Shown piece after piece: positions 4,914 to 64,000 of a stretch of 64,000 bases of DNA (its first letter is position 1; each line of letters starts with the position of its first letter). The position numbers and the translations under genes are program-made. The notes beneath the pieces are model-generated. The model worked only from the letters and a program-made list of their open reading frames with translations, ran no database searches and had not been told where the DNA came from. Source of the stretch: Raillietiella orientalis (taxonomy: Eukaryota); contig JAYWIR010000118.1 in assembly GCA_036172245.1 (NCBI GenBank), positions 1-64,000 on the forward strand. The letters are read 5' to 3'.

Positions 4914-7900
4914 CCTGCAAGGCTGGCAAGGAGGCCGTAAGGCGTTCGGCCTCCCCTCAGGAGTCCATCACTTCCGACCTTGAGGTGGAGGCCGGAAGCG
5001 CAGTCTCCCTTTCTACGGCACCGCGCAAGAAGGCTGGACGTAAGTCCACAAAGCCAAGGAAGCTCGTCTCCGACGTCGAAGGGGAAGAGATGGCTTCCGC
5101 AAGCGAGGGTGCCATGAGCGTGGGAAACTCTCGGGACTTGTCGCCCGAGAGACTCTTACGCGCGGACACGGAGGGGATGGAGGGGGTGGAGGCCGAACAG
5201 GTGCCTCAGGTGCCTGAGAAGGCCGAAACTCCCATCGACATCCTGCCTGTCTCGAAGAGGAGGGCTCCCCCACACCTTAATCTTCCCAGCAGTAATGCCG
5301 GGAATCTCCTCCCGCCGTCGTCTGCGCATCGCCGTTTGGAACGTGAACGGCATGACAGACGCCGGCAGGAGACGAGACATTGCCGCCCTTCTCGAGACCT
5401 ACGACCTTGCGCTGCTGCAGGAGATCAACGTGATATCTGCACAACAAGCGCAAGAGATCAAACGGATCTCCGGAGAGCGGCTATGGTACAGGTGGGGGAT
5501 TGCGAAATGTTGCGGTGTTGCCTACCTGCTTCGGCCAGGATTCGAGGCCGCGGCTCGGGGCGTGCGGTTCGACGATCACGGTCGTGTCGGCCAGCTGACT
5601 CTCAGGTGGTCCGACTCGTTCGATCTGATCGTCACGAACGTGTACGCACCAAGAAGCGCGGACCTGATGAACAGGAGGTCGAGGAAAGGGGTTTTTTTAG
5701 CCCTGCGGCGAGACTGGCTGACCGAAGCAGGCGTGCGGAATGCCCATCTGGTTGCAGGCGATTTCAACGTTCGCCTGAAACCAGATGGGCAGAATCCCGA
5801 GCGAGACCTGGTCAACGAGGTGTGGATGGCGCTGCACACCTGTAATTTGTTGGCCAGTGCACCGGGGATGGAAGACAGCACTGACCACGTGTTTCTTGAC
5901 GAGCACCTGGGCCCTCGTGTGGGCAGGCGCGGCAAGTTACCGTGCGAGCTGTCGGACCATCGCCCGCTAGTCCTCCTGATCCATCCGCGATACAGGGGCC
6001 CCCCCTTGTCAGCGTGGCGTCTCCCAGGGCTCTTGCTGAAGCTCCCGAACGCGGCGGAACATCTCCGCACGTTCATACGGAGCTACAGGCTGCGGACACT
6101 CCAGGATTGGGACCGCTTCAAGCGGTCGGTCCAGGAGTTCTGCGACCAGTTCCCTCTGCACCGCCTACCAACGGGTTTTGGGACTGAAGTCCGTAACGAA
6201 CGAGCCTACTGCAGGCCCGTCGTTACGTCTGGACCCCCGACATCCGCAGGCTGGCGGAATACAAAGCGGGTTCCGAGAGGCAAGCCTGGCAGTCCGGATC
6301 GGCCAGCTTACTGGACGATCAGAGCCAGGAGCACTCGGCACGTGCCCAAATCCGAGGCCTGCTGCGGAGTTACTACTCCTCCCTGTATGCCAGGGCACCT
6401 CCGGAGAGGAAAGTCTAACGACTGGTGCTTCCGGAAGGCGCCATAGCGATCGGGGAGGAGTAGAGAAAGACCCTCGACGAGGCTTTCACGATGGACGGGA
6501 CACTCTCGGCCATCGGAAAGCTAAAGAGGCGAAAGGCTCCAGGGGAGGACGGAGTGCCCGCGGAGTTTTATCAAACTTTCGCGGCTGAGCTTAGTCCCCT
6601 GGTACAGCAACTTACTTTGCTGATACGCAAAACAGGTGACGTTCCCGCCTCGTTTCGTTCGGCAAAGGTGCGGGTCCTCCCTAAGGGAGGAGATCTGAGG
6701 AGCATCAACAAGTGGCGTCCCATCACAACAGTGAATGCGGACGCCAAGTTGATAGCTAAGGTTCAGCAAGAGAGATTGGAACAAGTTGCCAACATCTTTA
6801 TCAGCCCGGAACAGACATATGCTGTTCCCGGGCGAAGCAAGGAGGCGAACTTGTTTCACGCTTCCACCTGGCTAGAGCTCCAACAAGGAAGAAGCTTGGT
6901 GCGCAGCCGGAATTTCGGTGCGTGCGCCGGCAAGGGGTTGGATGGTCGGGTGGTGGAGGGAGCCCTCGCGGTCGCACTCGACTTGCGGAAAGCATTCGAT
7001 TGGGTCGTCCAGAATTTTCTTCTGGAGCTTCTGGAACGCTTAAGATTCTCGGCCTCATTAGTGGCCTATCTGCGCTTCTGCTGGCGCGACGCGCTCATCA
7101 ATGTTACTTTCAGCGGGCAGACCGTGCAAGGCGTGCCGGTGCGGCTTGGGATCCGGCAGGGAGACAGCCTGAGTCCCTCGCTCTTCAGTAGCTACTTTGA
7201 GTTGGTACTAAGAGCGTAGAGGGGAACTCTGGCGCACCTGCCGCACGACTGTGCCGGTACGCCGGCCGTTCCAGCATACGCGGACGACCTTCTGCTGCTG
7301 CTTCCTATGTCCATCCCTGCTGCGGCGGTCGAGGAGTTGTTCGACCTGCTGCATCGGGGAACCGGACTTACGGTGAACAGGGCGAAGTCGTCCGTGATGC
7401 CAGCTGGTGCGGCGTGGGCAGGGCACCAGGACTGGGTCCGTTTGGGGATCCCCACGGTGAGGTACTTCAAGTACCTTGGTGTGCCGTTGGGGGACTACTC
7501 CCCTGCGGAAGCGTGGTCCGGCTGCCTCCAAAAAGTAGAGACGGCGTTCGGCCCGTTCCGAGGCGGCAGGTTTTTCCTGCCTGAACGGGCCGCGGTTTAA
7601 AACACGTTTGCGGCTCCGCTCCTGCGCCCCCTGCTTCTTGTTTGCCCTCCACAGAGAGAATTAAAAAGCGGACAAAGGACCTCCTCTGTATCGCCCTTTG
7701 GAGCAACAAGAAGGCCCGATTCCGCTTAAAGGAATTGTGCGCTCCTCGTCGGGATGGTGGTCTGGGCCTCCTGATACTGCAGCGGCTGGAGCTTCAGCTC
7801 CAGTTCCGATTGTCGACACTCGTTCCAGAGTTGTGGTGCACCTGTTGGTGCGTCCCTGCACGTCTCCTTCTCCAGCAAGCCACCGGCAAGACGGGAGTGA

Positions 7901-9091
7901 CGTCGTTTCTTGCACTCCGTCGCCGCGTCAACCGATGCGGACTCCAGCTAGGGAGGGTGGCTGCGCTGTATCGGAAAAACCCAGGATTGTTCACCTGTCG
8001 CCCGGTTAACGGTAGTGCCTGGTTGCAGGAAACCGTACAAACGTGGGGACAGTTCGTCATGCAACGCTCTTAACAGGAACGAAGGTTCCTGTTAAGGGGT
8101 TACAGAAGTTGCACGCTCCGCGAGATTCTGGAGGATCCAAAGAAGAGTGCGTGGGCAGAAAGAACCACCCTCGCTGAAGCGCTTCCCTTCTCCATGGAAG
8201 ATCTAGACAGCGATGTTGCGGCGAAGTGGTTGGTTACAGTAACAATCTCCGGAAAGGAGAAGAAGATAGGAGAGTGGAAGACGGGCCAGTTAACAGACGC
8301 TGCGACCCCGAGTACGCCTCTCAATGGACTTCTGGGCTGTTGCGCGCTGCTCGATGTTCCCATTGAACATCTGAAGTGGACCCCGGTTCTCATGAACACT
8401 TCCGCCCTCCCCTTAAAATGGCAGGAGTCGGCTCTCCTGTTGCAGCACTGGGGACTTTCCTGCAACGCCCGCCGACACCACTGGACCTGGGGAGGGGTGG
8501 ACCGCAATTGCGTCAGGTGTGGGGAACGGGATTCCCTGCCCCACCTGCTAGTGAATTGTGTTTTCATTCGGCCCCTTTGGTTCCGCTTTGCCGAGGCCAT
8601 GGGAATCCCCTGCGGCAACCCCAGGGACGCACTGAAAGCCTCTTCTTTGCCGACGCCCTTCGGCCAGCGGCCTCGTTAGCAGCTTTGTTCTGCCAACGCG
8701 GGATCGTCACTGCTTGGTGCAAGGCTACGGGAGGACAACGCGACCAGAGTGCCATCCAGCCAGCCTCCCAGTTCCTGAGGAGGGCGTCTCGATAGCCCCA
8801 CCTGGATCCAGGAATACAGAAGGAGCTTCCCGGCATCCTGCAAAGGATGCAAAGGCCCCACCAGCAACTGTGATCCCTTCCCTTACCCTCCCAACTTTTC
8901 TTTTCTTTTTTGTTTTGTTTTTTGTTCTTCCCCTTTCCCCCTGCTGCCGTGGTGGACCGTACCGGTCTGCGAACCGGTGACCCGGCAGGCTCTGTGTTTC
9001 TTGGTGCGTGGCTGGAGCAATGCTTAAGCTACCGAACGTCTTTGTAAATGTTTATTTTACAATAAACGTCTTGGCGAAATCAGGGTGAAAA
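4914..9091 (+). mobile_element. Retrotransposon G (type E): ORF1 C-terminus, disrupted ORF2 (APE-RT-ZnF) and 3' end
   Basis: TAATG at 5293-5297; WNVNG, LQE, GDFN and SDH endonuclease motifs; KAFD, QGDSLSP and YADD RT motifs; ends GGGTG-AAAA at 9091. Confidence 0.92.
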
Positions 9092-9316
9092 TCGAATGCT
9101 TTGTGCAAATCTTCTGCTAGTGCCAAGGCTCTTGGCCTTTCTTTCGTCCGTCCGCACTGGCGCACGCAGTCAGCAGAAGGTCTTGCCGCTGTTCGGCTAT
9201 CCGCCGCAACGCGCTCTTGGTGCTACCACCAGGTGCGCGCGAAAAGAAGGTTCGCATCCATGGATCTAATCGGTAAAGCGTAAGACTGCTCCGGGCTTAC
9301 CAAGTACTCCGCAATT
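9092..9316 (-). mobile_element. 225-bp type-A RT fragment ending in KAF(D)
   Basis: Near-identical reverse complement of about 62699-62923 (element K), including a shared premature TGG TGG TAG. Confidence 0.85.
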
Positions 9317-9361
9317 ACATTTTATTTTACAATAAACGCATCGGTGAAATCCGGGCGAAAA
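9317..9361 (+). mobile_element. Isolated ~45-nt type-E 3' terminus (AATAAA plus hairpin)
   Basis: TTTATTTTACAATAAACGCATCGGTGAAATCCGGGCGAAAA matches the end of G. Confidence 0.8.
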
Positions 9362-9384
9362 TCGAACACCTTGTGCGCTCTAGG

Positions 9385-10518
9385 GCGGACGTGTTTTCTC
9401 GGTGCTCCTTCTGCCAGCAATTCTCCCGAAGTGCATGCGTCGTGTGATTCGGTGGTCGATGAGACAGCGATGCCTTACGCGACCACCAGGAATGGCCACG
9501 GGGCAGCAGCAACGCCGCCCCTAGAGGCGATGGAGGTGGAAGCATCCGTTCCAACAGAATCGGTCTTCGCTGCAGCGCGGGCGTGGAGCGCCGTTGTGTC
9601 GGCGCCATCGCCTGCAGCCGCGGCGGAATTGTCGGCCTATGTAGAGGAGGGGTACAACCCCTCATTGTTCTACAAGGTAGGCAATTTATATTCTGTAGAA
9701 AGCGCGCTCGCGTTCTCGAAGGGCAAGCGCGCTCTCGATGTAAAAGAGGAGGAGCTCAGCGATATGACCATCCGCAGCGGGGGTCAGTACGTTGAGGTCA
9801 TCTGCAAACAAACACAGCTTGCCCAAGGACGGCTTAAAACCTTCGTGGTGATGGGGACGCGCAGGCTCCTCCCTATTACGGCGTACCGCAGCATGGTGGT
9901 CCACCTGTTAGGTGTCACTGCGCGGATGCGCAAGGAACAGGTTCGCGCCGCGTTGGAGGAATACGGAACGGTCCACGCGCAGTGGACGAAAGTTAGTCCT
10001 TCCAAAGACTACACGGGGCTGCAACACGACCTCACGGCTGCGCGCGTGACCGTTCGGGAGGGCTGCACTCTTCTCCACAAACTGGTGGTCGAAGGCGTAA
10101 CCGTCGACTTCTGGTATGTGGGGAAGCCGAAATTCTGTGGCCTCTGCAATACGTCGGGCCACCTCAAAAAGAGGTGTCCCAACGTGCAATGCCAAGTATG
10201 CGGCACAATGTGTCACACGAGGGAGGCGTGCCCCAAAGCAGCAGTGCGGGTGGTTTCCAAGAGAAACCTTTAAAAACGCGCCCGGCTTCTGCAGAAAAGG
10301 CTGGCGGCGAAAGCTGCCGCGAAGGCTGTGCCACCCGCGCCCAAGAACCAGGCCGCACCCGAGACCCCGGCCACCAAAGCCGAAAAAGTTGAGGGTGCCG
10401 GCCAGGAGAATATGTGGCAATTGGCAACGGCCAAGAAATCAAAAAAGGAAAGGAGATTAGAGAAAAAGCTCTAAAAATTTATTTTACAATAAAAGCCCCG
10501 GCGAAATCCGGGTGAAAA
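9385..10518 (+). mobile_element. Retrotransposon E2: 5' end and partial ORF1 (9470-10273) fused to a ~45-nt 3' terminus
   Basis: GCGGACGTG at 9385-9393, ORF1 with two CCHC knuckles, 3' hairpin at about 10488-10518, imperfect ~14-bp TSD (9362-9375 and 10519-10532). Confidence 0.8.
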
Positions 10519-13500
10519 TCGAAAACCTTCTGGAGGTCGACTGCGACCGCCAAGGAACCGGGCTTTCCCTCCTGCCTTCGGCGCCGGTTCTTCTTGCCTG
10601 CTGCTGTGACTTTCGCCTAAGCCAGGCTTTGCTGCGCCACGACTTCCTGCAGCTGCATCCAAGTACGCGTGAAAAGGATGTTCGCCTCCATGGATCGTCC
10701 GGGAATCGCGTAGGTTTGTTCCAAGCTCACCACAGATTCCGCGATTGTTCCTAAGCGCGCGACCCACAGCTTGGAAAACAACTTGACGTCCGAGTTCTCC
10801 AAGGTGATCGGACGCCAGTTGTTGAGTTGACGCAAGTCTCCGCCTTCCGGCAGGAGACGCACCTTCGCTGAGCGGAAGGAATCCGGGACATTCCCGGATT
10901 CACTCATCAGCGTCGCGAGTCCCAACATGAAGGGAATGAGCTCCACTTCAAAGCACTGATAAAACTCTGCAGGAAGCCCATTCTCGCCTGGCGCCTTTCG
11001 TCTCTTCAGCCCAGCGATGGCGTACGAAAATTCATCCGCCGTGAAGGGCTCGTTGAGACGTTCGCGTTCCTCCTCGCCGACAACACGAGCATCCTGAGAC
11101 AGGAGTATCTCAGAAAGAATATCCTCCGTCAGGGATTCGGCGTACAGCGAGGAGTAGTAGCGTCTCACAATGCGGTGTACTTCGGCTGGGGCCGAACATT
11201 CCTGGCCCTTGTCGTCCAACAAGCATGCTGCTCCGGACTGCCAGACCTGGCGCTCGGCCCTCGCCTTGTACTTCGAAAGACGCCCGACATCCGCGAGTCT
11301 CGAAAACGTGCGGGCCTGCAGAAAGTCTCTACTGTTGGCAACGCCCTCTCCGAAACCGCGTGGAAGCCAATGCAAGGGGAATTGGCAGCAGAACTCGCGG
11401 ACAGATCTTTTGAGATCGTCCCAGTCCGCAAGTTCTTGAATGGCGAGGCCTCAAAGGTATCCACGTAGATGCTCCGCAGCCTCCGGTTGGCTAAGCCAAT
11501 CCGCCTGCATCCACCAGTTTTGCAACGGAGGCCCCCTGCCTGGCGGAAGGATCTCAAACTCCAACCTGTAGTGGTCAGAAAGCCTAGTCAACAATCTTCC
11601 TCTCCTACCCACACGCGACTGCAGGTATTCATCGAGGAAAACGTGATCGAGCGATCTTGCCATTCCAGGTTCGCCGACCATCAAGTTGACGGCGGAAACG
11701 GACGCGCACATCTCGATGGGCAGCGCGCGCTCCCTCGGGCGGCTCCAATCGTCGGAAAGCAGGCGGACGTTGAAGTCCCCAGCGACGAGGTGTGCCACTT
11801 GGAAGCCGGAGTTGTTGAGATAGTGGCTCTGCACCTCAAAGAAGAAAGCTACTCTTAATTTGAGGTAGCGAGAGCCACTCGGCGTGTAGACGTTCGTAAC
11901 GACGAGATCGATGGACTCGGACCACTTGATGACAAGCTGGCCTATCCGTCCATCGTCATCGAAACGAACACTATGCACCGCTTCCTCTATTTTTCCTTTT
12001 ACGAGGAACGCGACGTCGCACGTGTGTGCGCCGCCGCACCGCCAATGTAGCGTTCCGCCTGCGCGCTCCTCGATTTCGGTTGCCTGCTCGTCGGAGATTA
12101 CGTGAATCTCCTGCAGGAGCGCGAGGTCGAAGGGGCGCAGGGCGTTGGCTACTAATCGCATCTTCTCGTCGTTCTGTAGTCCGTTCACGTTCCAACACGT
12201 CACGGACAGACGACGAGAAGACGCGATTCCACGCATTACTGCTGGGAAGGTGGCAGCTTTTTGCTCGCTTTATCCGGCGAGCAGACGGCGAGTAGCACGA
12301 CTGGCTGGAGAGGACGGTCGCCACCGTCCTCTGTCGTGCTGCATGCATGTAATGCCTCCACGCCAGGCTGAACCCCGTCGGGTTTCGTGGAGACTTCGCG
12401 TTGCTTCGCGGCGAGCGTTGCCTGGCTGCCTACTTTTGATCGGCGCGCACACGCTTTCGAACGAGTTGTCCTCGTCTCGGTGATCGGAACGGCATCCATT
12501 TCGGAGTTCGACCGGCGCATGTTCGATCGGGTTTCGGCCTTCCGCGAAGCAGTGACAGGTTCTGCTGTATTGACATCTGTCCTGTTTTCGTTTTCCGTCA
12601 CCAGAGCATCGCTTTTGGTGACGGCTGCTTTCCCGGCGCGCGCGTTTTCAGCGTGCTCACGCGCAGAAGCACGAGGGACCTTTGCTGAAGTCTTCTTTAC
12701 TTCATTACGGTTACTCACTTCGCGTGGCGCCGTAAATGGAGATTGTGCTCCATTGCCATCTTTGAAGCCATCCGCGTCTTTGGACGGGAGCACTTTGGAT
12801 GGCTTCGACACGCTCGTCATGGACGCTGCCTTCGGAAGGGCTTTTAATCCCTTCGTTGGCATGGCATCCGCGCCAGTCGAGAGCTTGCTCTCCGATTGCG
12901 ACGGCGTGAGATTTTTCTCCGCTTTCGCCGTTTTGGATCGCAACGCGGATTTTTTTTTCCGACTTTCGAACTCGACACGGCACAACCCTTCTTACCCGAT
13001 TTGGGCTTCTCAGCCACTGCAGGAGGTGAAGGAATGGATCTGAAGGTAATGGAAGTGTCCTTACCGCCGTTGTCCATTGACGTCCCCGCCGGTTGCTCGA
13101 ACTCCGAAAGAGCCGGGCGTGCTTGGTTAGGACAGCTATTGCGCCCAGGGGGACTTACCATTGCCCCGGATTCCCCGCACCCTTTCTTTTGCGGCTCCCC
13201 TGCCGCGAGAGGGGGCGCGCAGGGCTTCGCGTGCGAGGTTTCCTGCTGCTTTGGGGCGACATTCCGCCTCGCGTTTCTTCGGAATTTCTGCCGTGGGGTC
13301 TCCAGGTTTTTCGCAGATTTTTTCTTTTTATCCGCGCTTTGTTTCTTAAGATGAAGCTATTCGGCTGCCTTTTTTCGCAAAAGATCCGGGCAATTTTTCA
13401 ATTGATGCCCGGATAGTTTGCAATAACGGCATTTTCCAGAGGGGCATTTATCCAAACAATGTTTCTCCTTCCCGCATTGCTCGCACGTTCTTACTTTGCC

Positions 13501-14231
13501 GACGAACCACAGGTGAACGATTGTGTCTTTCACTTGTAGTGTGGTGGGCAGCAGACGGCGGTCCGGCATTGTAAGCCGGACTCCAGCGACTCCGTTGTGT
13601 ATGTACGGGAAGTCCTTGAGGTTGCTACGCTCCCTCCACAGCGCATGGACCGTGGCGAATTCCACCAACGCGTTCCGAATGTCAATATCGAAGATTTCCG
13701 ACTCGATGTCGAAAATCTCCGCCACAAATGAGTCGTCCATGGCGGCCGGGAAGACCTTCTGGCCACGGATCGACAACGGGGTGCGCAGCAAGCGTTGCAC
13801 AAGTGCAGCGTCTTTGCAACGCACCTTGAAATAGCCCATGTCTTTTACGTGCATAATGGCGAAAAGGTCCTCTTCCCGCACGCCAACACGGGTCAATTCA
13901 TCGTTGAACTGATTCCCGTCGCGCGCAGAAAGAAAGCCACTCACCTTATATCGGAGAGCAGGTCTATAGCCTTGGGCTACGTATGCCCGCAACTCCGACT
14001 CGTCGAGTGGTTTCCCTTTGACGGCTGCTGTGGCAGCAACGTCAGCAAAACTCCTCTCCATTGGTGAGAAAGACGAAGTGGAGGCGGCCGTAGGTTCCGC
14101 GATTGCAGATCCGGATGCTGTTCCTCCAACTTCAGTAGCTTCAAGTTGGGTCGACATCGTCGTCAAAATGTACGACGCCAAGATGAAGCGGATGAAAGCA
14201 CGGAGACGAGAGCGAAGAAAAGCACGTCCGC
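10519..14231 (-). mobile_element. Retrotransposon B (type A): 5' end, ORF1, and ORF2 up to the KAFD motif, where it is interrupted
   Basis: Closely similar to copy A. ORF1 pieces 13357-14181 and 12236-12985, TAATG at 12238-12234, APE 11451-12236, RT start 10617-11375. Confidence 0.92.
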
Positions 14232-14556
14232 ACTCGATTGAAATTTATCACCCGGTCACGCCGGGGCGTTTATTAATAATAATAAACTGGTCAGGGACAA
14301 TGTCCCCAACCAACAGAACGACAGAGAACATAGAAAAATTACCGCCACGCAGGCCTGGTAAACAAACCGCTCGCAGCGTGGGGGGAATGAGGGGAAACAA
14401 ACAAAAATCCAAAACTGGAGGGAAGGGAAAAGGGTTTTTGGTTAGGCTCCGTACTCACGGGGATTTAAACGATGAGCACCTCAAATGTTCCGGAGCCTAT
14501 GGGGACGCGGGTGTAAAAGAAAATACAAATTTAGTTTATGGAGGGTAGGGCAATGA

Positions 14557-17500
14557 TCACCGGGTTGGCCGCTGATGAGGGTGTGTAAACCGGCGGTGTA
14601 TTGCGGCGAGATTCCTCTTTGTCTCCTCTGTCAAATGAGGCCATCTAGCGGATGCTCCCATGTAGAAGGATGCTTTGCTGATTACCTCTTGGTACTGTCC
14701 GTTGATTACCAACGCCTGGCGGACGGAAACTATCGCGCGTATGCAACCGATGGTTGCAATCCTTGCGCTTACTGAAAGCCCGCTCGGCGTGAAGAATCGT
14801 CGCAGCAAGTCTCTTGCGGTGTCCACGGGATGCAATAGTGCTGTTGCCAGCCTACGCCACAGTCCTTGTAGGACACCGCAGTCCAGAAGTAGGTGCGGAA
14901 TCGACTCCGTCGATCCGCACCGAACGCAGTTCGCAGACGCAAGTCCCCCGGAGTCACGATGCCAACGCTCGTTGCACTGAAAACCCCAGTGAACGAAAAG
15001 CAGCACGGCTTGTTTCCAAGCAAGAAGGAGCAGCCAAATGTCCATACACTGTGGAGGGACTACAAGTTCTTCGGGGGTGACAGCAAGTTCTTCTGCCCAC
15101 CGGAGGAGTCCCTTTGCAGTAACACGAGGAGTGGCGGCGTCCGCCAACTCACTTGTCTTCCAGGTGCCAAGGAGTTTGGTTCTTCCCGCTATCGTGCAGG
15201 AAACCTCCCACCTCGCCGGTTGGTAACTATCGTTTCTTGCCCTGAGGGCAGACAGCGCTGCGGCAAGAGGCGTGGCAGCCAGGGTAGAAAACTTCACCTC
15301 GTCCTGCAGTACTTCTTCCAAGGATCGTGGAAAAAATTGGCGCAGGGGGCGAAGATCTTCAGGGCGTATTCCTTGGAACGCCGCCCAGGATTCAACAGAC
15401 TCCTGCCGCCAAGCTTCAAAGTTCATTGGGCGGCAGGAGATCCCAGAGTGTGCTTCCAGAAGTGCGGTCAACTGCCGCAATGGAAACCCGAAACCCCGCT
15501 TCCTGTATTGAGTGCCCGGCAAAAGCGAGAGAAATCCTCCGCTGCCGGCGCATCTCCGCAGGAGAATGCGAGCTGGCACGCACAGGGGGGATGTCCATAG
15601 CTGGGCACACAGTGCCAGCAGTCGGAACTGCACCTGCAGTCCGATTCGCTCCATTGTCAGGATACCCAAACCAGCATCCCGACGCGGAGCTGACAAATCT
15701 TTAAGGCGGATCCTGGATCTCGCCGGACCCCAGAGAACGTTCCTGAGCAGGCGCTTAGCCCGCTGTTTTGCCGCATAGGGGGGGTCCAAAACAAAAAACA
15801 GGGGACGGAGGAGGGGGGCCACAAAGGTGTTCCAAATAGTCGCCCTATCCTGCAAGGTAAACTTGCCGTTAAAGAACGGGCTGATGGCCAACTCTGCTTT
15901 CTGAAGACAGTCCGCCCACGCTTCGGCTGCGCCGAAAGCGCCCAACGGAACGCCAAGGTACTTAAAGTACCCGCCCGTGGGGATCCCCAGGCGGAGCCAG
16001 TCGGACTGCCCCTCCCACGACGTACCCACAGGAACGACCACGCTCTTCTCTCTGTTCACGCTCACGCCCGCTCCCCGACGAATCAGGTCGAAGAAATCCT
16101 CGACACTGGACGCCGGGGTGGACATGAGGAGCAGAAGAAGCAGGTCATCAGCGTAGGCGGCCACGGCAGGCGTTCCCGGGCAGGAGCTTGGCAAGTGAGA
16201 CAGCGTCAGCCTGTATGCTCTTAGCACCAACTCAAAGAAGATGCTGAAGAGCAACGGGCTTAAGCTGTCGCCCTGTCGGATGCCCCTACGAACGGGAATA
16301 CCATACACGCGACAGCCGCTAAAAGTGATGCAGGTTAGCGCGTGGCGCCAGCACGCGCGCAAATACAGCAGGAGTTGCGCCGGGAACCCAAAGCGTTCCA
16401 TAAGCTCCAAAAGCAGCTTCTGGTTTACGCAGTCGAACGCCTTGTGGAGATCGACCGCGACCGCCAAGGCACCTGGCGTTCCCTCCTGCCGTCGGCGCCT
16501 GTTCTTTTTGCCTGCGGCAGTGACTTTCGCAGCAGCCTGGCTTTGCTGCGCCACAACTTCCTGCAGCTGCATCCATGTACGCGCGAAAAGGATGTTCGCC
16601 TCCATGGATCGTCCCGGAACCGCGTAGGTTTGTTCCGGGCTCACCACAGATTCCGCGATTCTTCCTAGCCGCGCGACCCACAGCTTGGAAAACAACTTGA
16701 CGTCCGAGTTCACCAAGGTGATCGGACGCCAGTTGTTAAGTTGGCGCAAGTCTCCGCCTTTCGGCAGGAGACGCACCTTCGCTGAGCGGAAGGAATCCGG
16801 GACATTCCCGGATTCACTCATCAGCGTCGCGAGTTTCAGCATCAAAGGAATGAGCTCCACTGCAAAGCACTGATAAAACTCTGCAGGGAGCCCATCCTCG
16901 CCTGGCGCCTTTCGTCTCTTCAGCCCAGCGATGGCGGACGAAAATTCATCCGCCGTGAAGGGCTCGTCGAGACGTTCGCGTTCCTCCTCGCCGACAACAC
17001 GAGCATCCTGAGACAGGAGTATCTCAGAAAGAATATCCTCCGTCGGGGATTCCGCGTAGAGCGAGGAGTAGTAGCGTCTCACAATGCGGCGTACTTCGGC
17101 TGGGGCCGAACATTCCTGGCCTTCGTCGTCCAACAGGCATGCTGCTCCGGACTGCCAGACCTGGCGCTCGGCCCTCGCCTTGTACTCTGCGAGACGCCCG
17201 ACATCCGCGCGTCTCGAAAACGTGCGGGCCTGCCGAAAGTCTCTACTGTTGGCCACGCCCTCTCCGAAACCGCGTGGAAGCCGGTGCAAGGGGAATTGGC
17301 AGCAGAACTCGCGGACAGATCTTTTGAGATCGTCCCAGTCCGCAAGTTCTTGAATGGCAAAGCCTCGGAGGTATCCACGTAGATGCTCCGCAGCCTCCGG
17401 TTGGCTAAGCCAATCCGCCTGCATCCTCCAGTTTTGCAACGGAGGCCCCCTGCCTGGCGGAAGGATCTCAAACTCCAACCTGTGGTGGTCAGAAAGCCTA

Positions 17501-18150
17501 GTCAACAATCTTCCTCTCCTGCCCCCACGCGAATGCAGGTTTTCATCGAGGAAAACGTGATCGAGCGATCTTTCCATTCCAGGTTCGCTGACCATCAAGT
17601 TGGCGGCGTGCACGGACGCGCACATCTCGATGGGCAGCGCGCGCTCCCTCGGGCGGCTGCAATCGTCGGAGAGCAGGCGGACGTTGAAGTCCCCAGCGAC
17701 GAGGTGCGCCACTTGGAAACCGGAGTTGTTGAGCCAGTAGCTCTGCACCTCACCAAAGAAAGCTACTCTTTCTTCGAGGTAGCGAGAGCCACTCGGCGCG
17801 TAGACGTTCGTAACGACGAGATCGATGGACTCGGACCACTTGATGACAAGCTGGCCTATCCGTCCGTCGTCATCGAAACGAACACTACGCACCGCTTCCG
17901 CCATTTTTCCTCTTACGAGGAACGCGACGCCTCACGTGTGTGCGCCGCCGCACCGCCAATGTAGCGTTCCGCCTGCGCGCTCCTCGATTTCGGCTGCCTG
18001 CTCGTCGGAGATTACGTGAATCTCCTGCAGGAGCGCGAGGTCGAAGGGGCGCAGGGCGTTGGCTACTAATCGCCTCTTCTCGTCGTTCTGCAGTCCGTTC
18101 ACGTTCCAACACGTTACGGACAGACGACGAGAAGACGCGATTCCCCGCAT
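14557..18150 (-). pseudogene. ORF2 of A: APE endonuclease, reverse transcriptase and C-terminal zinc finger, with one in-frame TGA at 17934-17932
   Basis: 72-aa and 1115-aa ORFs in the same frame; B has TGC at the stop position. WNVNG, LQE, GDFN, SDH, KAFD, QGDSLSP, YADD and CVRCG..H...C motifs. Confidence 0.93.
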
Positions 18151-20071
18151 TACTGCTGGGAAGGTGGCGGCTTTTTACTCGCTTTATCCGGCGAGCAGAC
18201 GGCGAGCAGCACGACTGGCTGGAGGGGACGGTCGCCACCGTCCTCTGTCGTGCTGCATGCATGTAATGCCTCCACGCCAGGCTGAACCCCGTCGGGTTTC
18301 GTGGAGACTTCGCGTTGCTTCGCGGCGAGCGTTGCCTGGCTGCCTACTTTTGATCGGCGCGCACACGCTTTCGAACGAGTTGTCCTCGTCTCGGTGATCG
18401 GAACGGCATCCATTTCGGAGTCCGACCGGCGCATGTTCGATCGGATTTCGGCCTTCCGCGAAGCAGTGACAGGTTCTGCTGGATTGACAGCTGTCCTGTT
18501 TTCGTTTTCCGTCACCAGAGCATCGCTTTTGGTGACGGCTGCTTTCCCTGCGCGCGCGTTTTCAGCGTGCTCACGCGCAGTTGCACGAGGGACCTTTGCT
18601 GAAGTCTTCTTTACTTCATTACGGTTCCTCACTTCGCGTGGCGCCGTAAATGGAGAGTGTGCTCCATGGCCATCTTTGAAGCCATCCGCGTCTTTGGACG
18701 GGAGCACTTTCGATGGCTCCGACACGCTCGTCATGGACGCTGCTTTCGGAAGGGCTTTTAATCCCTTCGTTGGCATGGCATCCGCGCCAGTCGAGAGCTT
18801 GCTCTCCGACTGCGACGGCGTGAGATTTTTCTCCACTTTCGCGGTGTTCGATCGCGACGCGGATTTTTTTTTGCCGACTTTCGAAGTCGACACGGCACAA
18901 CTTTTCTTACCCGATTTGGGCTTCTCAGCCACTGCAGGAGGTGTAGGAATGGATCTGACGGTACTGGAAGTGTCCTTACCGCCGTTGTCCATTGACGTCC
19001 CCGCCGGTTGCTCGAACTCCGAGAGAGCCGGGCGTGCTTGGGAAGGACCGCTATTGCGCCTAGGGGGACTTACCATTGCCCCGGATTCCCCGCACCCTTT
19101 CTTTTGCGGCTCCCCTGCCGCGAGAGGGGGTGCGCAGGGCTTCGCGTTCGAGGTTTCCTGCTGCTTTGGGGCGACATTCCGCCTCGCGTTTTTACCGAAT
19201 TTCTGCCGTGGGGTCTCCAGGTTTTTCGCAGATTTTTTCTTTTTATCCGCGCTCTGTTTTTTAAAATGGAGCTCCGCGGCTGCCTTTTTCGCAAAAGATC
19301 CGGGCAATTTTTCAATTGGTGCCCGGATAGTTTGCAATAACGGCATTTTCCAGAGGGGCATTTATCCAAACAATGCCCCTCGTTCCCGCAGTGCTCGCAC
19401 GTTTTTACTTTGCCCACGAACCACAGGTGAACGACCGTGTCATTCACCTGTAGTTTGGTAGGCAGCAGACGGCGGTCCGGCATTGTAAGCCGGACTCCAG
19501 CGACTCCACTGTGTATGGACGGGAAGTCCTTGAGGTTGCTACGCACCCTCCACAGCGCATGGACCGTGGCGAATTTCGCCAACGCGTTCCGAATATCAGT
19601 ATCGGAGATTTCCGACTCGATGTCGAAAATCTCCACCACACATGAGTCGTCCATGGCGGCCGGGAAGACCTTCTGGCCACGGATCGACAACGGGGTGCGC
19701 AGTAAGCGTTGCACAAGTGCAGCGTCTCTGCAACGCACCTTGAAATAGCCCATGTCTTTTACGGGCATAATGGCGAGAAGGTCCTCCTCCCGCACGCCAA
19801 CACGCGTCAGTTCATCGTTGAACTGATTCCCGTCGCGCGCAGAAAGAAAACCACTCACCTTATATCGGAGAGCAGGTCTATAGCCTTGGGCTACGTATGC
19901 CCGCAACTCCGACTCGTCGGGTGGTTTCCCTTTGACGGCTGCTGTGGCAGCAACGTCAGCAAAACTCCTCTCCATTGGCGAGAAAGACGAAGTGGAGGCG
20001 GCCGTCGGTTCCGCGATTGCAGATCCGGATGCTGTTCCTCCAACTTCAGTAGCTTCAAGTTGGGTCGACAT
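18150..20071 (-). pseudogene. ORF1 of A (two CCHC knuckles), with one frameshift in an A-run near 19287
   Basis: ORFs 19070-20095 and 18150-19361 overlap; B has one more base in the same run. Confidence 0.88.
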
Positions 20072-20145
20072 CGTCGTCAAAATGTACGACGCCAAGATGA
20101 AGCGGATGAAAGCACGGAGACGAGAGCGAAGAAAAACACGTCCGC

Positions 20146-21183
20146 ACTCGATTGAAATCTCCCGCTATCAGGTGAGCCTTCCGCACGCTCGTGTTCGCCA
20201 GCCAGTCGCGCTTCAGGGATTCAAGCAGCCTGGTACGGTTGCTGTATCCCTTTTGACCGGTTCGGGCGTACACATTCGTGACGATCAGATCGATCGGGTC
20301 GGACCAGCCGAGAGTCAGCTGACCGACCCGACCGTCGTCATCGAAGAGCACGCCCTTCACGGCAGCGTCGATGGCCGGCTTCACGAAGAACGCGACCCCG
20401 CAGGTGTTGCGGATGCCGCATTGCCAGTACAGCCGACCCCCCGCGATCGTCTCGATCTCCTGGACGTCTACCGCGGTGATCACGTGGATCTCATGCAAAA
20501 GGGCCAGGTCGAACTCCCGCAGAGTGTCGGCTGTATCTCGCCTGTTACCGTCGTCGCGCAGTCCGTTGACATTCCAGCAGGCCGCGCGAATCCGACGGCG
20601 ACTGGCGAGCCCAGGTGTTACTCCTGGGAAGATGGCAGTGCGGCGTCCGCCACCTGCTGGGGCGGGACGCTAGGTGGAGGAGGGGGGTCAGGTGCTGAAT
20701 GCACCTGGTCCCCCTCCTCCATCGGTGCCGGCGCGTCGGCCGGATCATCCGCAGGTGGAGTCGCGCCTACCTGTTCGCCCTTCTCCATGGAGGCGGGCTG
20801 TTCAGGGTCGGCGCCTGCAGGGGGGACTTCATCCCCCTGTTCACCCTCCTCCATGGGGGTGGCCGGATCGACGGCTTGCGAGCGTAAGAATTCCCCCTCC
20901 GGGATTCCCACGCTGCCGCTGCCTTCCTGCTTCTCCTCCTCAATGGTGGAGGGGAGGCGCCTCCTGGGTTTGTGGGACTTGCGTCCCGATTTCCTGGGGG
21001 GTGCCTCCGAGGAGGAGGATGTACTTCCGGCTCCCAGGGCTAACTCACCTGCGAAGGCCTTGTTAGCCGTAGCCGGCCTTCGCACGGCCTTGCGCGAGGG
21101 TTTCTCCCGCTCGGCCAGCGCGACCGCGAGCTCCTCCGCCGCCTGTGTAAACGCGGCGTCCGCGGCTTTGACCGCCGCGTTAA
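20146..21183 (-). mobile_element. Retrotransposon C1 (type C): ORF1 C-terminus and APE N-terminus up to GDFN
   Basis: PMEEG repeats and SSQE stop at 20618, then TPGLASRRR..CWNVNG...HLIAGDFN. Confidence 0.88.
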
Positions 21184-21525
21184 TGAAGGGATGTCATGGA
21201 GTATGTAGCTTGCTTTCTGCGAATGGCAACCTGATAATACCACCTGGGAAATCTGCAGAAGGACCTCTTCGGCATTCTGCAAAGGATAGAAACACCACGC
21301 AGCGAACAGTGTTCACTTCCGCCCATTAAAAGGACTATGGTTCTCTGTGTTCTCAGTTTCGTTTATTTTTATTTTTGTTTTCCTCTTCTGCTTCCGCTGA
21401 CGTGGAGTGTCAAGTCGGTCTGTGCACTGACAATCCGGCAGCTATGTTTTATTGGTTGCAGCGGGGCCCTGTAATGAAAATACCGAAAGCATTTTAATAA
21501 ACGCCCAGGCTTGCCCGGGTGAAAA
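21184..21525 (+). mobile_element. 5'-truncated degraded type-F-like element (ORF2 tail and 3' end)
   Basis: RDVMEYVACFLRMAT..DLFGILQRI resembles the F/N C-terminus; AATAAA at 21496 and hairpin ending GGGTG-AAAA. Confidence 0.75.
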
Positions 21526-22089
21526 CGCCGGTAAATCCTCAGGAAAACCCATGTTCCTGCATCATCCCAGTAACCTGCAGGAATGACCTTCTGCGTCAGA
21601 GTACGCCCTAGCACTCAGAAGAACAGGCAACTGCATGACCAATCAGGCAATGTTAAACTTACACCTTTGTCCTCCGTAGGCAGAAAGATTCTCTGACAGA
21701 TCTTTCAGCAAGCTACGGTTTCCGTCTGTCCTTGAGACAACCGAGGACTCCTACGGACGTCCTTTGGGGACCGAAAAGAGAGACCAACTGCCAGAAACAA
21801 CTCTTTCTGTTGAATCTGGTCTCGGCTCGAAGCGCAGAAAGAGGAAAAAAAGAATAGAGAGGGGAAGCTGTTGTTTTCAGTCTTAGATGTTCAGCATCTC
21901 TTTACTTGTCGCAACAGTCGTACGGGACTTTCAACGATCTGGAGTTTCCCACGCTGGAGCGCCGAATCGCGGACAAACAGACGGTCAGCGACCGCGCAGG
22001 AGGAAGACACGTGGTCCTCTCGAATTTCTCTTCGCATCATTGCGTTTCCTTTCTCGTGTCTGTCTGCCCTCAGGGCAAGCCATGTTAGC

Positions 22090-50797: not shown

Positions 50798-53150
50798 ACG
50801 CCAAGTTGATAGCCAAGATGTAAGCAGAGCGTCTAAGACGGGTTGCCAACATCTTCATCAGCCCGGAACAGACATATGCTGTTCCCGGGCAGAGCATGGA
50901 GGCGAACCTGTTTCACGCTTCCACCTGGCTAGAGCTCCAACATGGAAGGAGCTTGGTGCGCAGCCGGAATTCCGGTGCGTGCGCCGGCAAGGGGTTGGAT
51001 GGTCGGGTGGGAGAGGGAGCCCTTGCGGTCCCAATCGACTTGCGGAAAGCATTCGATTGCGTCGACCAGAATCTCCTTCTGGAGCTTCTGGAACGCTTGG
51101 ACTTTTCGGCCTCATAAGTGGCCTATCTGCGCCCCTGCTGGCGCGACGCGCTCATCAATGTTACTTTCAGCGGGCAGACCGTGCACGGCGTGCCGGTGCG
51201 GCGTGTGATCCGTCAGGGAGACAGCCTGAGCCCCTTTCTCTTCAGTACCTACTTTGAGTTGGTACTGAGAGCGTACAGGGGAACTCTGGCGCACCTGCCG
51301 CACGACTGTGGGGGTACGCCGGCCGTTTCAGCATATGCGGACGACCTTCTGCTACCGCTCCCTATGTCCACCCCGGCTGCGGCGGTCCAGGAGTTGTTCG
51401 ACCTGCTGCATCGGGGAACCGGTCTTACGGTGAACAGAGCGAAGTCTTCTGTGATGCCAGTTGGTGCGGCGTGGGCAGGGCAGCAGGACTTGGCCCGTTT
51501 GGGGATCCCCACGGTGAGGTACTTGGTGTACCTTGGTGTGCCGTTGGGGGACTACTCCCCTGCAGTAGCGTGGTCCGGCTGCCTCCAAAAAGTAGAGACG
51601 GCGATCGGCCCGTTCCGAGGCGGCATTTGTTTCCTGTCTGAACGGGCCGCGGTTTGGAACACGTTCGCGGCTCCACTTCTTCGCCACCTGCTTTTTGTTT
51701 GCCCCCCCACAGAGAGAATTAAAAAGCGGACAAAGGACCTCCTCCGTATCGGCCTTTCGGGCAACGGGAGGTCTTGAGTGCGCTTAAAGGACTTGTGCGC
51801 TCCTCGTCGGGAAGGTGGTCTGGGCCTTCTGACGCTGGAACGGCTGGAGCTTCAGCTCCAGTTCCGATTGTCGGCACTGGTTTCAGAGTTGTGGTGCACC
51901 TCTCGGTGCGTCCCTGCACGTCTCCTTCTCCAGCAAGCCACCGGCAAGACGGGACTGACGTCGTTTCTTGCACTCCGTCGCCGCGTCAACCGATGCGGAT
52001 TCCAGCTACGGAGGGTGGCTGCGCTGTATCGGAAAATCCCAGGAGTGCTCACCTGTCGCCCGTTTAACGGTAGTGCCTGGTTGCAGGAAACCGTTCGAAC
52101 GTGGGGACAGATCGGCATGTAACGCTCCCAACAGGAAGGAAGGTTCCTGTTTGGGGGTTACAGAAGTTGCACGCTCCGCGAGATCCTGGAGGATCCAAAG
52201 AAGAGAGCGTGGGCAGGAAGAACCCCCCTCGCTGCTGCGCTGCCCTCCCTGATGGAAGATCTGGACAGCGATGTTGCGGCGAAGTGGGTGGTTACAGTAA
52301 CAATCTCCGGAAAGGAGAAGAAGGTAGGAGAGTGGAAGACGGGTCAACTGACTGACGCTGCCACCCGAATTGCGCCTCCTCATAGACTTCTGCGCTGGAA
52401 CACGCTGCTCGACGTTCCCATTGAACGTCTGAAGTGGCCCCCGGTGCTCATGAACACCTCCACCATTCCCTTCAAATGGCAGGAGTCGGCTCTCCTGTTG
52501 CAGCACTGGGGACTCCTCTTCAACGCCCGCCGACACCACTGGACCTGGGGAGCGGTGGACCCCAATTGCTTCAGGTGTGGGGAACAAGAGTCCCTCCCCC
52601 ACTTGCTAGTGGATTGTGTTGCCGTTCGGCTTCTTTGGTTTCGCTTTCCCGCGGCTATCGAAATCCGCTGCGGCAACCCCAGGAACGCACTGAAAGCCCT
52701 CTTCGTTGCTGATGCCCTCCGGCCAGCGGCCTCGTTAGCAGCTTTGTGCTGCCTACGCGGGATGATCACCGCTTGGAGCAAGGCTACGTGAGGTCGACGC
52801 GACCAGGGTGCCATCCATTCAGCCTCCCAGTTCCTGAGGAGGGCGTCCCGATGGCCCCATCTGGATCCAGGAATAGAGAAGGAGCTTAGAGGCATCCTGC
52901 AAAGGATGCAACGGCCCCACCAGCAACGGTGATCCCTTGCCTTATCCTCCCAACTTTTCTTTTCTTTTTTGCTTTGGTTTTAGTTTTTCCCCCTCCTTCC
53001 TGCTGCCGTGGTTTACCGTACCGGTCTGCGAACCGGTGACTCGGCAGGCTCTGTGTTTCTCCGTGCGTGGCTGGAGCAATGATCCAGCCACTGCACGTCT
53101 TTGTAAATGTTTGTTTCATAATAAACGCCCCGGCGAAATCCGGGTGTAAA
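50798..53150 (+). mobile_element. Retrotransposon M (type E): disrupted RT, zinc finger and 3' end
   Basis: Closely similar to G 6741-9091; ends GGGTG-TAAA at 53150. Confidence 0.92.
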
Positions 53151-53542
53151 TCGAGCGCTTTGCAGAGATCGGCGGCGTCCGCGAAGGTTCTCGACGTTCC
53201 ATCGTGCCTTGAACACCGACGCTTACCTTTGGCTGCGGCGATTTCGTCTGCCTGGCTCTGCTGCGCCACGCACTGCGGCAACTCGAACCATTTTCTCGCG
53301 AAGAAGAGATTGGCGTCCATGGACCGCCCCGGAACAGCATACGTCTGCTCCGGACTTACCAAAGACTCCGCGATTCTTCCCAGGCGCCCGATCCATAGCT
53401 TGGAGAACAACTTGACGTCCGAATTCACCAAGGTGATGGACGCCAGTTGCTGAGGTTACGCAAATCACCGCCTTTCCTCAGGAGCCTCACCTTTGCTGAG
53501 CGGAAAGAAGCGGGAACATCTCCCGTCTCACGCATCAGCGAC
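53151..53542 (-). mobile_element. Type-A RT fragment L, cut at KA(L)D by M and upstream by K
   Basis: LMRETGDVPASFRSAKVRLL, NSDVKLFSKLW and DLCKALD. Confidence 0.85.
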
Positions 53543-62500: not shown

Positions 62501-62923
62501 GGCGGAACCGGCACCACTGGTGCTTAGAATCTCGACGCTGATGAGGGTGACGGGCGATGTCCCTTCTTCCTTCCGCTCAGCGAGGGTGCTCCTTCCGAAA
62601 GGAGGGGATCTGCGCCAGCTAAAGAACTGGCGTCCGATCACATTAGTGAATACGGACGTCAAGTTGTTTCCGAAGCTGTGGGTCAAGCGCTTAGGGAAAA
62701 TTGCGGAGTACTTGGTAAGCCCGGAGCAGTCTTACACTTTACCGAATAGATCCATGAATGCGAACCTTCTTTTCGCGCGCACATGGTGGTAGCATCAAGA
62801 GCGCGTTGCGGCGGATAGCCGAACAGCGGCAAGACCTTCTGCTGACTGCGTGCGCCAGTGCGGACGGACGAAAGAAAGGCCAAGAGCCTTAGCACTAGCA
62901 GAAAATTTGCACAAAGCATTCGA
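53543..62923 (+). mobile_element. Retrotransposon K (type A-related): 5' end, ORF1 split by J, and ORF2 up to KAFD
   Basis: ACGGACGTG at 53551, knuckles at 54296-54392, TAATG at 61210, APE and RT N-terminus, HKAF(D) at 62910-62923. Confidence 0.88.
54960..60521 (-). mobile_element. Retrotransposon J: full-length (5562 bp) divergent L1/Tx1-type element with perfect 16-bp TSD
   Basis: CTCTCGCGATCGCTAA at 54944-54959 and 60522-60537. ORF1 with three CCHC knuckles (59151-60008). ORF2 SWNANG, LQET, GDLN, SDH, KAFD, QGDSLS, YADD and CAAC..H...C, with several frameshifts. Confidence 0.93.
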
Positions 62924-64000
62924 TTTTCACCCTGATTTCGCCGGGACGTTTATTGTAAAATAAACATTTACAAAGACGTGCGGTGGCTGGACCATTGCTC
63001 CAGCCACGCACGGAGAAACACAGAGCCTGCTGGGTCACCGGTTCGCAGACCGGTACGGTGAACCACGGCAGCAGGGGGGAGGGGGAAAAACTAAAACCAA
63101 AGCAAAAAAGAAAAGAAAAGTTGGGAGGATAAGGCAAGGGATCACCGTTGCTGGTGGGGCCGTTGCATCCTTTGCAGGATGCCGGCAAGCTCCTTCTGTA
63201 TCCCTGGATCCAGATGGGGCCATCAAGACGCCCTCCTCAGGAACTAGGAGGCTAACTGGATGGCACCCTGGTCGCGTTGACCTCCCGTAGCCTTGCTCCA
63301 AGCGGTGACGATCCAGCGTAGGCAGCACAAAGCTGATAACGAGGCCGCTGGCTGAAGGGCGTCGGCAACAAAGAGGGCTTTCAGTGCGTCCCTGGGGTTG
63401 CCGCAGGGGTTTCAAATGGCCGCGGCAAAGCGAAACCAAAGGGGCCGAAGGGCAACACAATCCACTAGCAGGAGGGGGAGGGAATCCCGTTCCCCACACC
63501 TGACGCAATTGGGGTCCACCGCTCCCCAGGTCCAGTGGTGACGGCACGCGTTGCAGGGGAGTCCCCAGTGCTGCAACAGGAGATCCGACTCATGCCATTT
63601 TAAGGGAATGGTGGAGGTGTTCATGAGCACCGGGGGCCACTTCAGACGTTCAATGGGAACGTCGAGCAGCGTGTTCCAGCGCAGAAGTCCATTGGGAGGC
63701 GTACTCGGGGTCGCAGCGTCTGTTAACTGGCCCGTCTTCCACTCTCCTATCTTCTTCTCCTTTCCGGAGATTGTTACTGTAACCAACCACTTCGCCGCAA
63801 CATCACTGTTCAGATCTTCCATAAGGGAGGGCAGCGCAGCAGCAAGGGGGGTTCTTCCTGCCCACGCCCTCTTCTTTGGATCCTCCAGGATATCGCGGAG
63901 CGTGCAACTTCTGTAACCCTTAAACAGAAACCTTCGTTCCTGTTGGGAGGGTTGCATGCCGAACTGTCCTTACGTTCGAACGGTTTCCTGCAACCAGAAA
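62924..64000 (-). mobile_element. Retrotransposon O (type E): ORF2 tail and 3' end, runs off the right edge
   Basis: Similar to G and M; zinc-finger region; terminal hairpin ending GGGTG-AAAA at 62924. Confidence 0.92.

Follow-up and report, generated by a model that had tools for sequence, protein, structure and literature searches.

The targets known for target-specific long interspersed nuclear elements (LINEs) are ribosomal RNA, small nuclear RNA (snRNA) and transfer RNA genes, microsatellites, telomeres and a few DNA transposons. Here, we describe a stretch of 64,000 nucleotides from Raillietiella orientalis (assembly GCA_036172245.1, contig JAYWIR010000118.1, positions 1 to 64,000, hereafter the window), in which two copies of an A-type LINE, designated A and B, follow each other at one site of a C-type LINE, in the codons of the endonuclease motif GDFN, and in which E-type elements lie antisense at the codons of motif A of the reverse transcriptase (RT) of other LINEs. 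The targets enumerated for target-specific elements without long terminal repeats (LTRs) include transposons (PMC5035012), and Tx1 elements insert into Tx1d (PMC6719617). Tx1L and Tx2L of Xenopus laevis, target-specific members of the L1/Tx1 group which insert into the DNA transposons Tx1D and Tx2D, are alike in that a LINE with an apurinic/apyrimidinic endonuclease (APE) and an RT uses a specific target inside another transposable element. In the window, by contrast, the apparent target lies in the protein-coding part of another LINE, in the codons of a catalytic motif, and at least two sister lineages use two motifs in opposite orientations.

Zepp and ZeppL LINEs nest into existing copies and form tandem arrays, and their clusters are richer in guanine and cytosine (GC) than the surrounding genome (PMC8226300, PMC3446292). 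As described there for Chlorella/Coccomyxa and Chlamydomonas, LINEs nest in LINE copies as GC-rich head-to-tail arrays, a nesting habit which is all that is common to the two cases. In the window, the junctions fall in GDFN and ..AFD codons with single-base precision, whereas the available text of these sources names no nucleotide-level target for Zepp. Furthermore, Zepp elements have a poly-A tail, whereas the elements described here end in a hairpin followed by 4 nt.

The rDNA-specific LINEs R1/R2 and other elements specific for multicopy genes, such as Utopia and Keno, have in common with the present elements a conserved, multicopy target under selective constraint, junctions that are precise and fixed in orientation, and a defined 3' end without long poly-A. 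R1/R2 are also alike in having read-through flanks able to pair with the target, a pairing that has been proposed for R1Bm/R2. However, the target of R1/R2 is a host RNA gene, whereas here it would be the enzyme gene of a rival retrotransposon, and insertion also disables a competitor. Homing elements (homing endonuclease genes, inteins, group I/II introns) target conserved catalytic motifs, and the most constrained codons likewise form a target that is hard to mutate away; their machinery is unrelated to the target-primed reverse transcription (TPRT) of an APE-type LINE, whose target here is itself a selfish element. Transposon targeting by LINEs is already known. LINE-on-LINE targeting at the level of a motif was not found in a limited literature search, which returned no report of LINEs that direct their insertion to the codons of endonuclease GDFN or of RT motif A.

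All results refer to this single window, and the A-type sample is small, consisting of two sets of junctions and one external flank taken from the public sequencing run X1. This run was the sole one found to contain window DNA (0.68 of the sampled words were present), and no RNA sequencing run containing window DNA was listed in the run search. Searches by tblastn with open reading frames ORF2 and ORF1 of A indicated that a nest of LINEs fills most of the window outside 22-36 kb, with a GC content of 55-65% in the LINE blocks and of 42-50% at 22-36 kb. The features that form the junctions under study are the following.

20151..20669, minus strand: C1, a 173-codon open frame covering the N-terminal half of the APE endonuclease in ORF2 of a C-type LINE (Pfam)
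14245..20150, minus strand: copy A, a full-length A-type LINE of 5,906 bp (sequence reading, blastn, Pfam)
14237..14244, minus strand: the middle copy of the 8-bp target ATTTCAAT, which is the sole sequence separating the 3' end of A from the 5' end of B
10519..14236, minus strand: copy B, the older A-type copy, from its 5' end through ORF2 residue 573 (blastn)

On the minus strand, the order is C1-ATTTCAAT-[A]-ATTTCAAT-[B]. Reading of the junctions, together with blastn, confirmed what a first-pass annotation had noticed, namely two A-type copies placed head-to-tail at one site in a C-type GDFN motif. The Pfam family Exo_endo_phos aligned to C1 at model positions 3-155 of 225, and the open frame of C1 halts exactly at GGA GAT TTC AAT, which encodes GDFN (20151-20162). 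The terminal reading is CAC CTG ATA GCG GGA GAT TTC AAT (HLIAGDFN, last base 20151), and the upstream copy of ATTTCAAT corresponds to the final 8 bases of C1 (20158-20151). The D and N of GDFN, like the Asp of motif A, are taken by us to be catalytic residues, as in L1 enzymes. Copy A starts at 20150, immediately after the host AAT, with CGAGT-GCGGACGTG, and the start of B at 14236 is identical.

The first-pass annotation had placed the break in the Asp codon. This is true of the downstream (3') junction (G/AT, the stroke marking the break), whereas the upstream junction falls after the Asn codon (AAT/C). The duplication, earlier given as 8-13 bp, is narrowed by the sequence to 8 bp, or to 9 bp if the next C is shared. 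The suggestion that CGAGT belongs to the 5' end of the element held up, as a similar leader of 5 nt precedes GCGGACGTG at related 5' ends and the host in X1 reads C-TCCG; this comparison supports CGAGT as element sequence, all but perhaps its first C. ATTTCAAT occurs four times in the 64 kb against 1.7 expected, and two of the four are the junctions themselves. By our own arithmetic, the odds of a chance repeat of the 8-mer at the second junction are about 1 in 65,000.

The anatomy of A is that of an APE-type LINE of the L1-like group: LTRs are absent, a short duplication flanks the copy, and 5'-truncated relatives are found in the window. ORF1 (20071-18150) contains two putative CCHC knuckles, which appear as CX2CX4HX4C in the translation, and one 1-bp frameshift near 19284-19290; a Pfam search with it returned no family. 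ORF2 (18150-14560, 1,197 codons) comprises an APE domain (Exo_endo_phos, residues 15-222, E = 6e-14), an RT domain (RVT_1, residues 463-734, E = 2e-21) and a putative C-terminal Cys/His motif, and is interrupted by one in-frame TGA at 17934-17932. The Cys/His motif is visible as a CX2C...HX4C string, with a weak zf-RVT match (E = 0.0085, 17.2 bits, under the 27.5-bit cut-off). Among solved structures, ORF2 was best matched by human LINE-1 ORF2p (E = 1e-40), and R2 proteins followed at 1e-15 or weaker. The 3' end consists of AATAAA, a hairpin and then ...AATAAACGCCCCGGCGTGACCGGGTG-ATAA (GGGTG-ATAA), with its last base at 14245. Across 10 sequences, the 3' hairpin showed 0 compensatory pairs, and the 5' end of A matched no known ribozyme or RNA, the sole match being to a microRNA family below threshold.

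Copy B (14244..10519) is 95.1% identical by blastn to positions 13-3738 of A; elsewhere in the window, identity to A does not exceed 85%. Over 3,726 bp, the two copies differ by 182 substitutions and two 1-bp indels (4.9% divergence). These changes were polarised with two outgroup elements of the window (44709-46424 and 61212-62924). The 52 amino-acid differences in ORF2 residues 1-573 comprise 37 derived in B, 6 derived in A and 9 ambiguous ones, an asymmetry of 37:6 with a binomial p value of 1.6e-6. In addition, B carries four disabling lesions in 3.7 kb (two stops in the ORF2 half, one stop and one frameshift in ORF1) and A carries two in 5.9 kb. Copies of equal age should decay alike; A and B do not and, therefore, were not born together.

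The ratio of nonsynonymous to synonymous divergence (dN/dS) between A and B was 0.44 in ORF2 and 0.42 in ORF1. The neutral expectation was obtained from a permutation that preserved the observed substitution types and the CpG context, with 5,000 simulations per reference. With A as reference, 40 of the 99 ORF2 differences were synonymous against a neutral value of 27.8 +/- 4.3, and 14 of the 5,000 simulations reached 40; with B as reference, the neutral value was 24.8 +/- 4.1 and this count was reached in 0 of 5,000. Because dN/dS is low and synonymous changes are in excess, part of the A-B divergence arose in source elements that were functioning. From these comparisons, we conclude that A and B are independent insertions, and that A, the later one, entered the upstream copy of the site which B had regenerated.

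A local duplication of the DNA, by unequal crossing-over through the 8-bp repeat, or an artefact of the assembly could also give this arrangement. Head-to-tail repeats can come from replication slippage or misassembly, and the A-B junction is uncovered by the listed X1 contigs. However, a homology of 8 bp is too short for unequal crossing-over, the divergence between the copies excludes a collapsed or expanded repeat, and the unequal decay together with the synonymous excess contradicts neutral decay of co-born copies. An origin of this kind is very improbable.

In order to compare the locus with independent material, the X1 data, which are contigs of a single run and not reads, were aligned to positions 8800-21700 of the window. 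X1 coverage is absent from B (10524-13971), which was not used as evidence here. A contig of 3,755 bp lies on 16426-20179 with 36 differences (about 99% identical to A), spans the 5' junction of A and reaches 29 nt into C1-like sequence. It is devoid of the TGA of A (the letter at 17932 differs) and has one extra base at the ORF1 frameshift of A. Fifteen of the 40 variant rows listed fall in the part shared with B; at these, the contig agrees with B in 13 cases and with A in 2 (p = 0.007), and for this reason it is nearer to the ancestor than A is. As judged from its letters, it fits better with a family consensus or another copy than with a simple ortholog. An X1 'joint' from 9111 to 16760, one side of which is merely 20 nt long, was read as an alignment effect of a related copy and set aside.

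A loose end of X1 at 14236 (2 contigs, agreement 0.98) consists of an A-like 3' end, followed by ATTTCAATC (that is, ATTTCAAT-C) and then by a new flank. When reverse-complemented and read in the frame of the host, these letters give DFN-LRLLSVDPKT, to be compared with GDFN-VRLLSDD in the endonuclease of A itself; by its translation, this loose end is the missing half, after GDFN, of an endonuclease. The succession that the first-pass annotation had proposed to look for, ATTTCAAT and then the rest of the endonuclease ORF, was thus seen in X1 after an A-like 3' end. As the frame continues past GDFN, ATTTCAAT(C) is a target-site duplication and CGAGT is element sequence. Within the window, a search for the 3' half of C1 with the letters of the X1 flank gave chance matches of 9-10 nt only.

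The idea that the same site was used twice, with the duplication regenerating it, is therefore sustained by the 37:6 asymmetry, the synonymous excess, the X1 contig and the X1 flank. On the evidence at hand, neither of the two observations named beforehand as contrary to it was made, namely that A and B are closest relatives through a local duplication and that a preference for GDFN is lacking elsewhere. Although the sample is small, A-type elements would qualify as target-specific, with A and B independently at one site and a matching X1 flank.

The second lineage was recognised from its 3' ends. Ten element 3' ends in the window have AATAAA, the hairpin and GGGTG plus 4 nt in common, and the five with the loop GAAAT were classified as E-type. 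All five E-type ends (at 9087, ~9357, 10514, 53146 and 62928) are then followed by TCGA(A/G).., the reverse complement of ..TTCGA/..CTCGA in ..(A/V)(F/L)D motif-A codons, and all are antisense at a host ..FD/..LD. The elements and host pieces concerned are listed below.

5295..9091, plus strand: E1, an E-type LINE (ORF2 and 3' end), whose GGGTG-AAAA terminus adjoins the motif-A site of H1
9092..9317, minus strand: H1, an RT fragment (residues ~487-573) of a G61-type LINE, ending in ..HKAFD against the inverted E1 3' end
9318..9379, plus strand: E2, a 3'-end fragment of ~44 bp with AAAA and an 18-bp motif-A remnant, which reads ..HKVFD on the minus strand
9380..10518, plus strand: E3, a short element with an E-type 3' module (...CCCGGCGAAATCCGGGTG-AAAA), antisense at the motif-A codons of B directly after TTCGA
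53129..53170, plus strand: an E-type 3' end (GGGTG-TAAA, 53146-53150) adjoining an antisense motif A (..CKALD) in a third host type
62903..62945, minus strand: an E-type 3' end (GGGTG-AAAA) adjoining motif A (..HKAFD, ending at 62923) of a plus-strand LINE, G61

Copy B itself is one of the hosts: its ORF2 breaks off at the Asp of the RT motif-A sequence ..QKVFD (residue 573), where an inverted E-type element interrupts it at 10519. The intact motif A of A ends in TTCGAC (16432-16437), and at the homologous position of B (10510-10520) TTCGA is followed by the T run of the element. Apart from B, the interrupted hosts are H1, the host at 53151-53541, G61 (61212-62923) and the 18-nt remnant, which comes from yet another host and occupies 9362-9379. 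Over 228 nt, the hosts are 61-67% identical to one another, with the exception of H1 and G61 (95.6%). The E-type junctions cover at least 4 host contexts, the 18-nt remnant included. Furthermore, a loose end of X1 at 9092 gives an uninterrupted motif-A host (DLHKAFD-CVDQD), with GAC at the insertion point. The T after TTCGA in the filled sites is therefore part of the 4-nt tail of the element, and priming starts from a nick at TTCGA^C in the sense strand of the host.

By these junctions, E-type elements would be target-specific, independent copies lying at the same nucleotide position and in one orientation. In two sister lineages, insertion into catalytic-motif codons of other LINE subfamilies is thus base-precise and orientation-fixed, in the sense direction at GDFN of a C-type LINE for the A-type and antisense at ..AFD of A-type and other hosts for the E-type.

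The E-type region also bears on the possibility that A and B arrived in a single event, either as a read-through dimer RNA from a donor tandem or by a jump of the RT from B RNA to A RNA with an 8-nt read-through flank. Between 9 and 10.5 kb, E-type pieces stand head-to-tail and are separated by non-local fragments of hosts, one of 18 bp (9362-9379) and one of 226 bp (H1), and such non-local pieces indicate that events of the read-through type do occur in the family. H1 and the G61 host (62.5-62.9 kb) have the same in-frame stop (W-stop-HQ) and each ends at an E-type 3' end; read-through, transduction or template jumps explain this best. It seems that a composite of host and insert was copied here, via read-through 3' transduction or segmental duplication. 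For A and B, however, the amino-acid changes derived in B are ~6 times those derived in A and the lesions of B are more numerous, whereas equal decay would be expected of copies of equal age. Were B already dead in a donor array, the two hits at one site would merely be shifted to the donor locus. A joint arrival is, in our judgement, quite improbable.

An absence of sequence specificity, with A-type elements preferring LINE-rich chromatin or existing copies in the manner of Zepp and with a hot spot at the junction or a very short nick preference, was weighed in the same way. The LINE nest that makes up most of the window outside 22-36 kb favours it, as do other members of the family at non-recurrent sites (4909, 21521, 37747, 48495) and one X1 flank of an A-like 3' end that is not recognisably GDFN; Zepp clusters are described as nested insertions into existing copies (PMC8226300). 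On the other hand, A reuses the identical phosphodiester and the same 8-mer, the X1 flank resumes the endonuclease reading frame directly past GDFN, and the sister E-type is equally precise, to a single nucleotide, at five junctions in different hosts. Nesting without specificity is thus an unlikely explanation.

Probably, then, A and B are separate TPRT insertions of a site-specific L1-like LINE into ATTTCAAT(C) in the GDFN codons of a C-type LINE. What the sequences show is the anatomy of the junctions, the half-site downstream, the recurrence of the E-type junctions, and that A and B are independent with B the earlier; the specificity of the endonuclease and the annealing step are what we infer from them. 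B would have inserted first into the C-type GDFN site, leaving ATTTCAAT on each side, and A would have inserted later into the upstream, regenerated ATTTCAAT. The A-type APE endonuclease would nick the antisense strand of the C-type LINE directly after ATTGAAAT, and the freed 3' end would prime cDNA at the fixed terminus of the element (hairpin-GGGTG-ATAA, no poly-A). A second nick on the sense strand, 8-9 bp off, would give the duplication. Priming may be aided by a read-through RNA whose old target pairs with the nicked site; as the target follows every resident copy, such an RNA would carry it. With a site-specific element, A-type copies would be flanked by ..GGAGATTTCAAT on the 5' side and by ATTTCAATC and TCCG.. 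on the 3' side. For E-type elements, which would follow the same strategy, the insertion point would be TTCGA^C within the ..AFD motif-A codons of the RTs of other subfamilies, among them B, in antisense orientation.

Several observations weigh against site specificity or against the independence of the two copies. A single occupied C-type site is visible, and the 3' junction of B lies beyond the window. The X1 flank at 14236 could be the 3' junction of B itself and not a third event. At 14243, a second loose end of X1 (2 contigs, agreement 0.86) has an A-like 3' end next to another flank, for which no relation was found to the GDFN continuation or to B. The synonymous excess is weak in ORF1, where 15 of 36 differences are synonymous, a value reached by 467 and 272 of the 5,000 simulations with the two references. 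Six of the 11 motif-A sites in the window are intact, some of them with TTCGAC, and a near-cognate site of E1, ATTTCAAC (5757-5768), is unoccupied. Relatives of the A-type family were absent from the other collections scanned (metagenome, prokaryote-genome, viral). Finally, as the window is mostly LINE, nesting of LINEs in LINEs is expected; the reuse of one nucleotide position is not.

The comparison with databases gave the following results. Among the 7 matches to ORF2 of A, the closest protein (P0001) was a metagenome fragment, 58% identical, which is an uninterrupted RT fragment without any junction; the remaining matches were at 25% identity or less, bar one short partial match. A 204-codon ORF spanning the C1-A junction gave 0 matches in the protein database, and the 3' terminal module of the family gave 0 matches in each of the metagenome, prokaryote-genome and viral collections. 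A protein-based scan of metagenome contigs returned 18 loci, all of them distant LINEs with 22-35% identity and none informative.

A broader reading can be put forward tentatively: the L1-like subfamilies of this nest may form a guild in which each parasitises the others, their endonucleases homing on the indispensable catalytic-motif codons of rivals. It is conceivable, at rather less than even chances, that GDFN is targeted by the A-type and ..AFD by the E-type, so that the C/E lineage is hit by A and the A-type by E. Equally speculative is the further step, that a family escapes from itself through synonymous codons and that a codon-level arms race builds LINE-only nests. The GDFN codons of A and B themselves, GGGGACTTCAAC, depart from the target at three wobble positions, and these differences would spare the family from itself, a point that is suggestive only.

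If the site-specific interpretation is true, the coding sequence of catalytic motifs in competing LINEs would serve as a safe haven and would be a new class of target. It would also plainly show retrotransposon lineages in direct conflict, with a competitor killed by each insertion, and would provide a mechanism at the nucleotide level for the growth of LINE-only nests, centromere-like ones included. In addition, naturally re-targeted APE endonucleases with specificity on the scale of 8 bp would be of practical interest for programmable TPRT insertion.

Further observations concern the host lineage. C1 is 52.6% identical to residues 3-156 of ORF2 of A. Within the window, C1 is closest to a second C-type copy (48.5-50.8 kb; 85% nucleotide identity over 239 bp), which has a family 5' end at 50797 and an ORF1 and is also homologous to the region upstream of C1; E1 (5.3-9.1 kb) is the next nearest. 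The 5' region of this second copy contains a tandem repeat of 24/48 bp (2.4-4.7 copies) at 50437-50549. An element at 44.7-48.5 kb, 69% identical to A in ORF2, has its 3' end antisense at 48490-48510 within the same copy; this insertion point lies at the N-terminus of the endonuclease (..IAGGRL) and is a single case, from which no site preference can be claimed.

E3 is 1.1 kb long and lacks ORF2. It combines a family 5' end and the E-type terminal ~45 nt with an ORF1-like frame that is 31% identical to ORF1 of A; its last 200 nt are about 48% identical to other E-type copies. From this composition, it is possibly a non-autonomous derivative limited to ORF1. The 5' ends of several subfamilies also have a motif in common: eight of them contain GCGGACGTGYTTTT, mostly a few bases inside the start, against 1.1 expected.

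536(-), 1889(-), 9385(+), 14231(-), 20145(-), 50797(-), 53551(+) and 54724(-): element 5' ends bearing GCGGACGTGYTTTT

GCGGACGTGYTTTT may be a conserved 5'-terminal promoter or a signal for recognition of the end.

The low-GC stretch that separates both LINE blocks contains exons of an AKR1-like aldo-keto reductase at 32077-33008 on the minus strand, with best protein identities of 64-71% and matches scattered across animals and bacteria. At the other end of the window, a full-length U4 snRNA (Rfam RF00015, 73.5 bits) was found at 60386-60523 on the minus strand. It is on the same strand as a distant LINE and just upstream of it, ~130 nt before the ORF1 frame, which opens near 60256; this LINE matches ORF1 of A at 59882-59205 and ORF2 at 58598-56250. 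The arrangement may reflect insertion of a LINE next to a U4 gene, or template switching that joined U4 and LINE sequence into a chimera.

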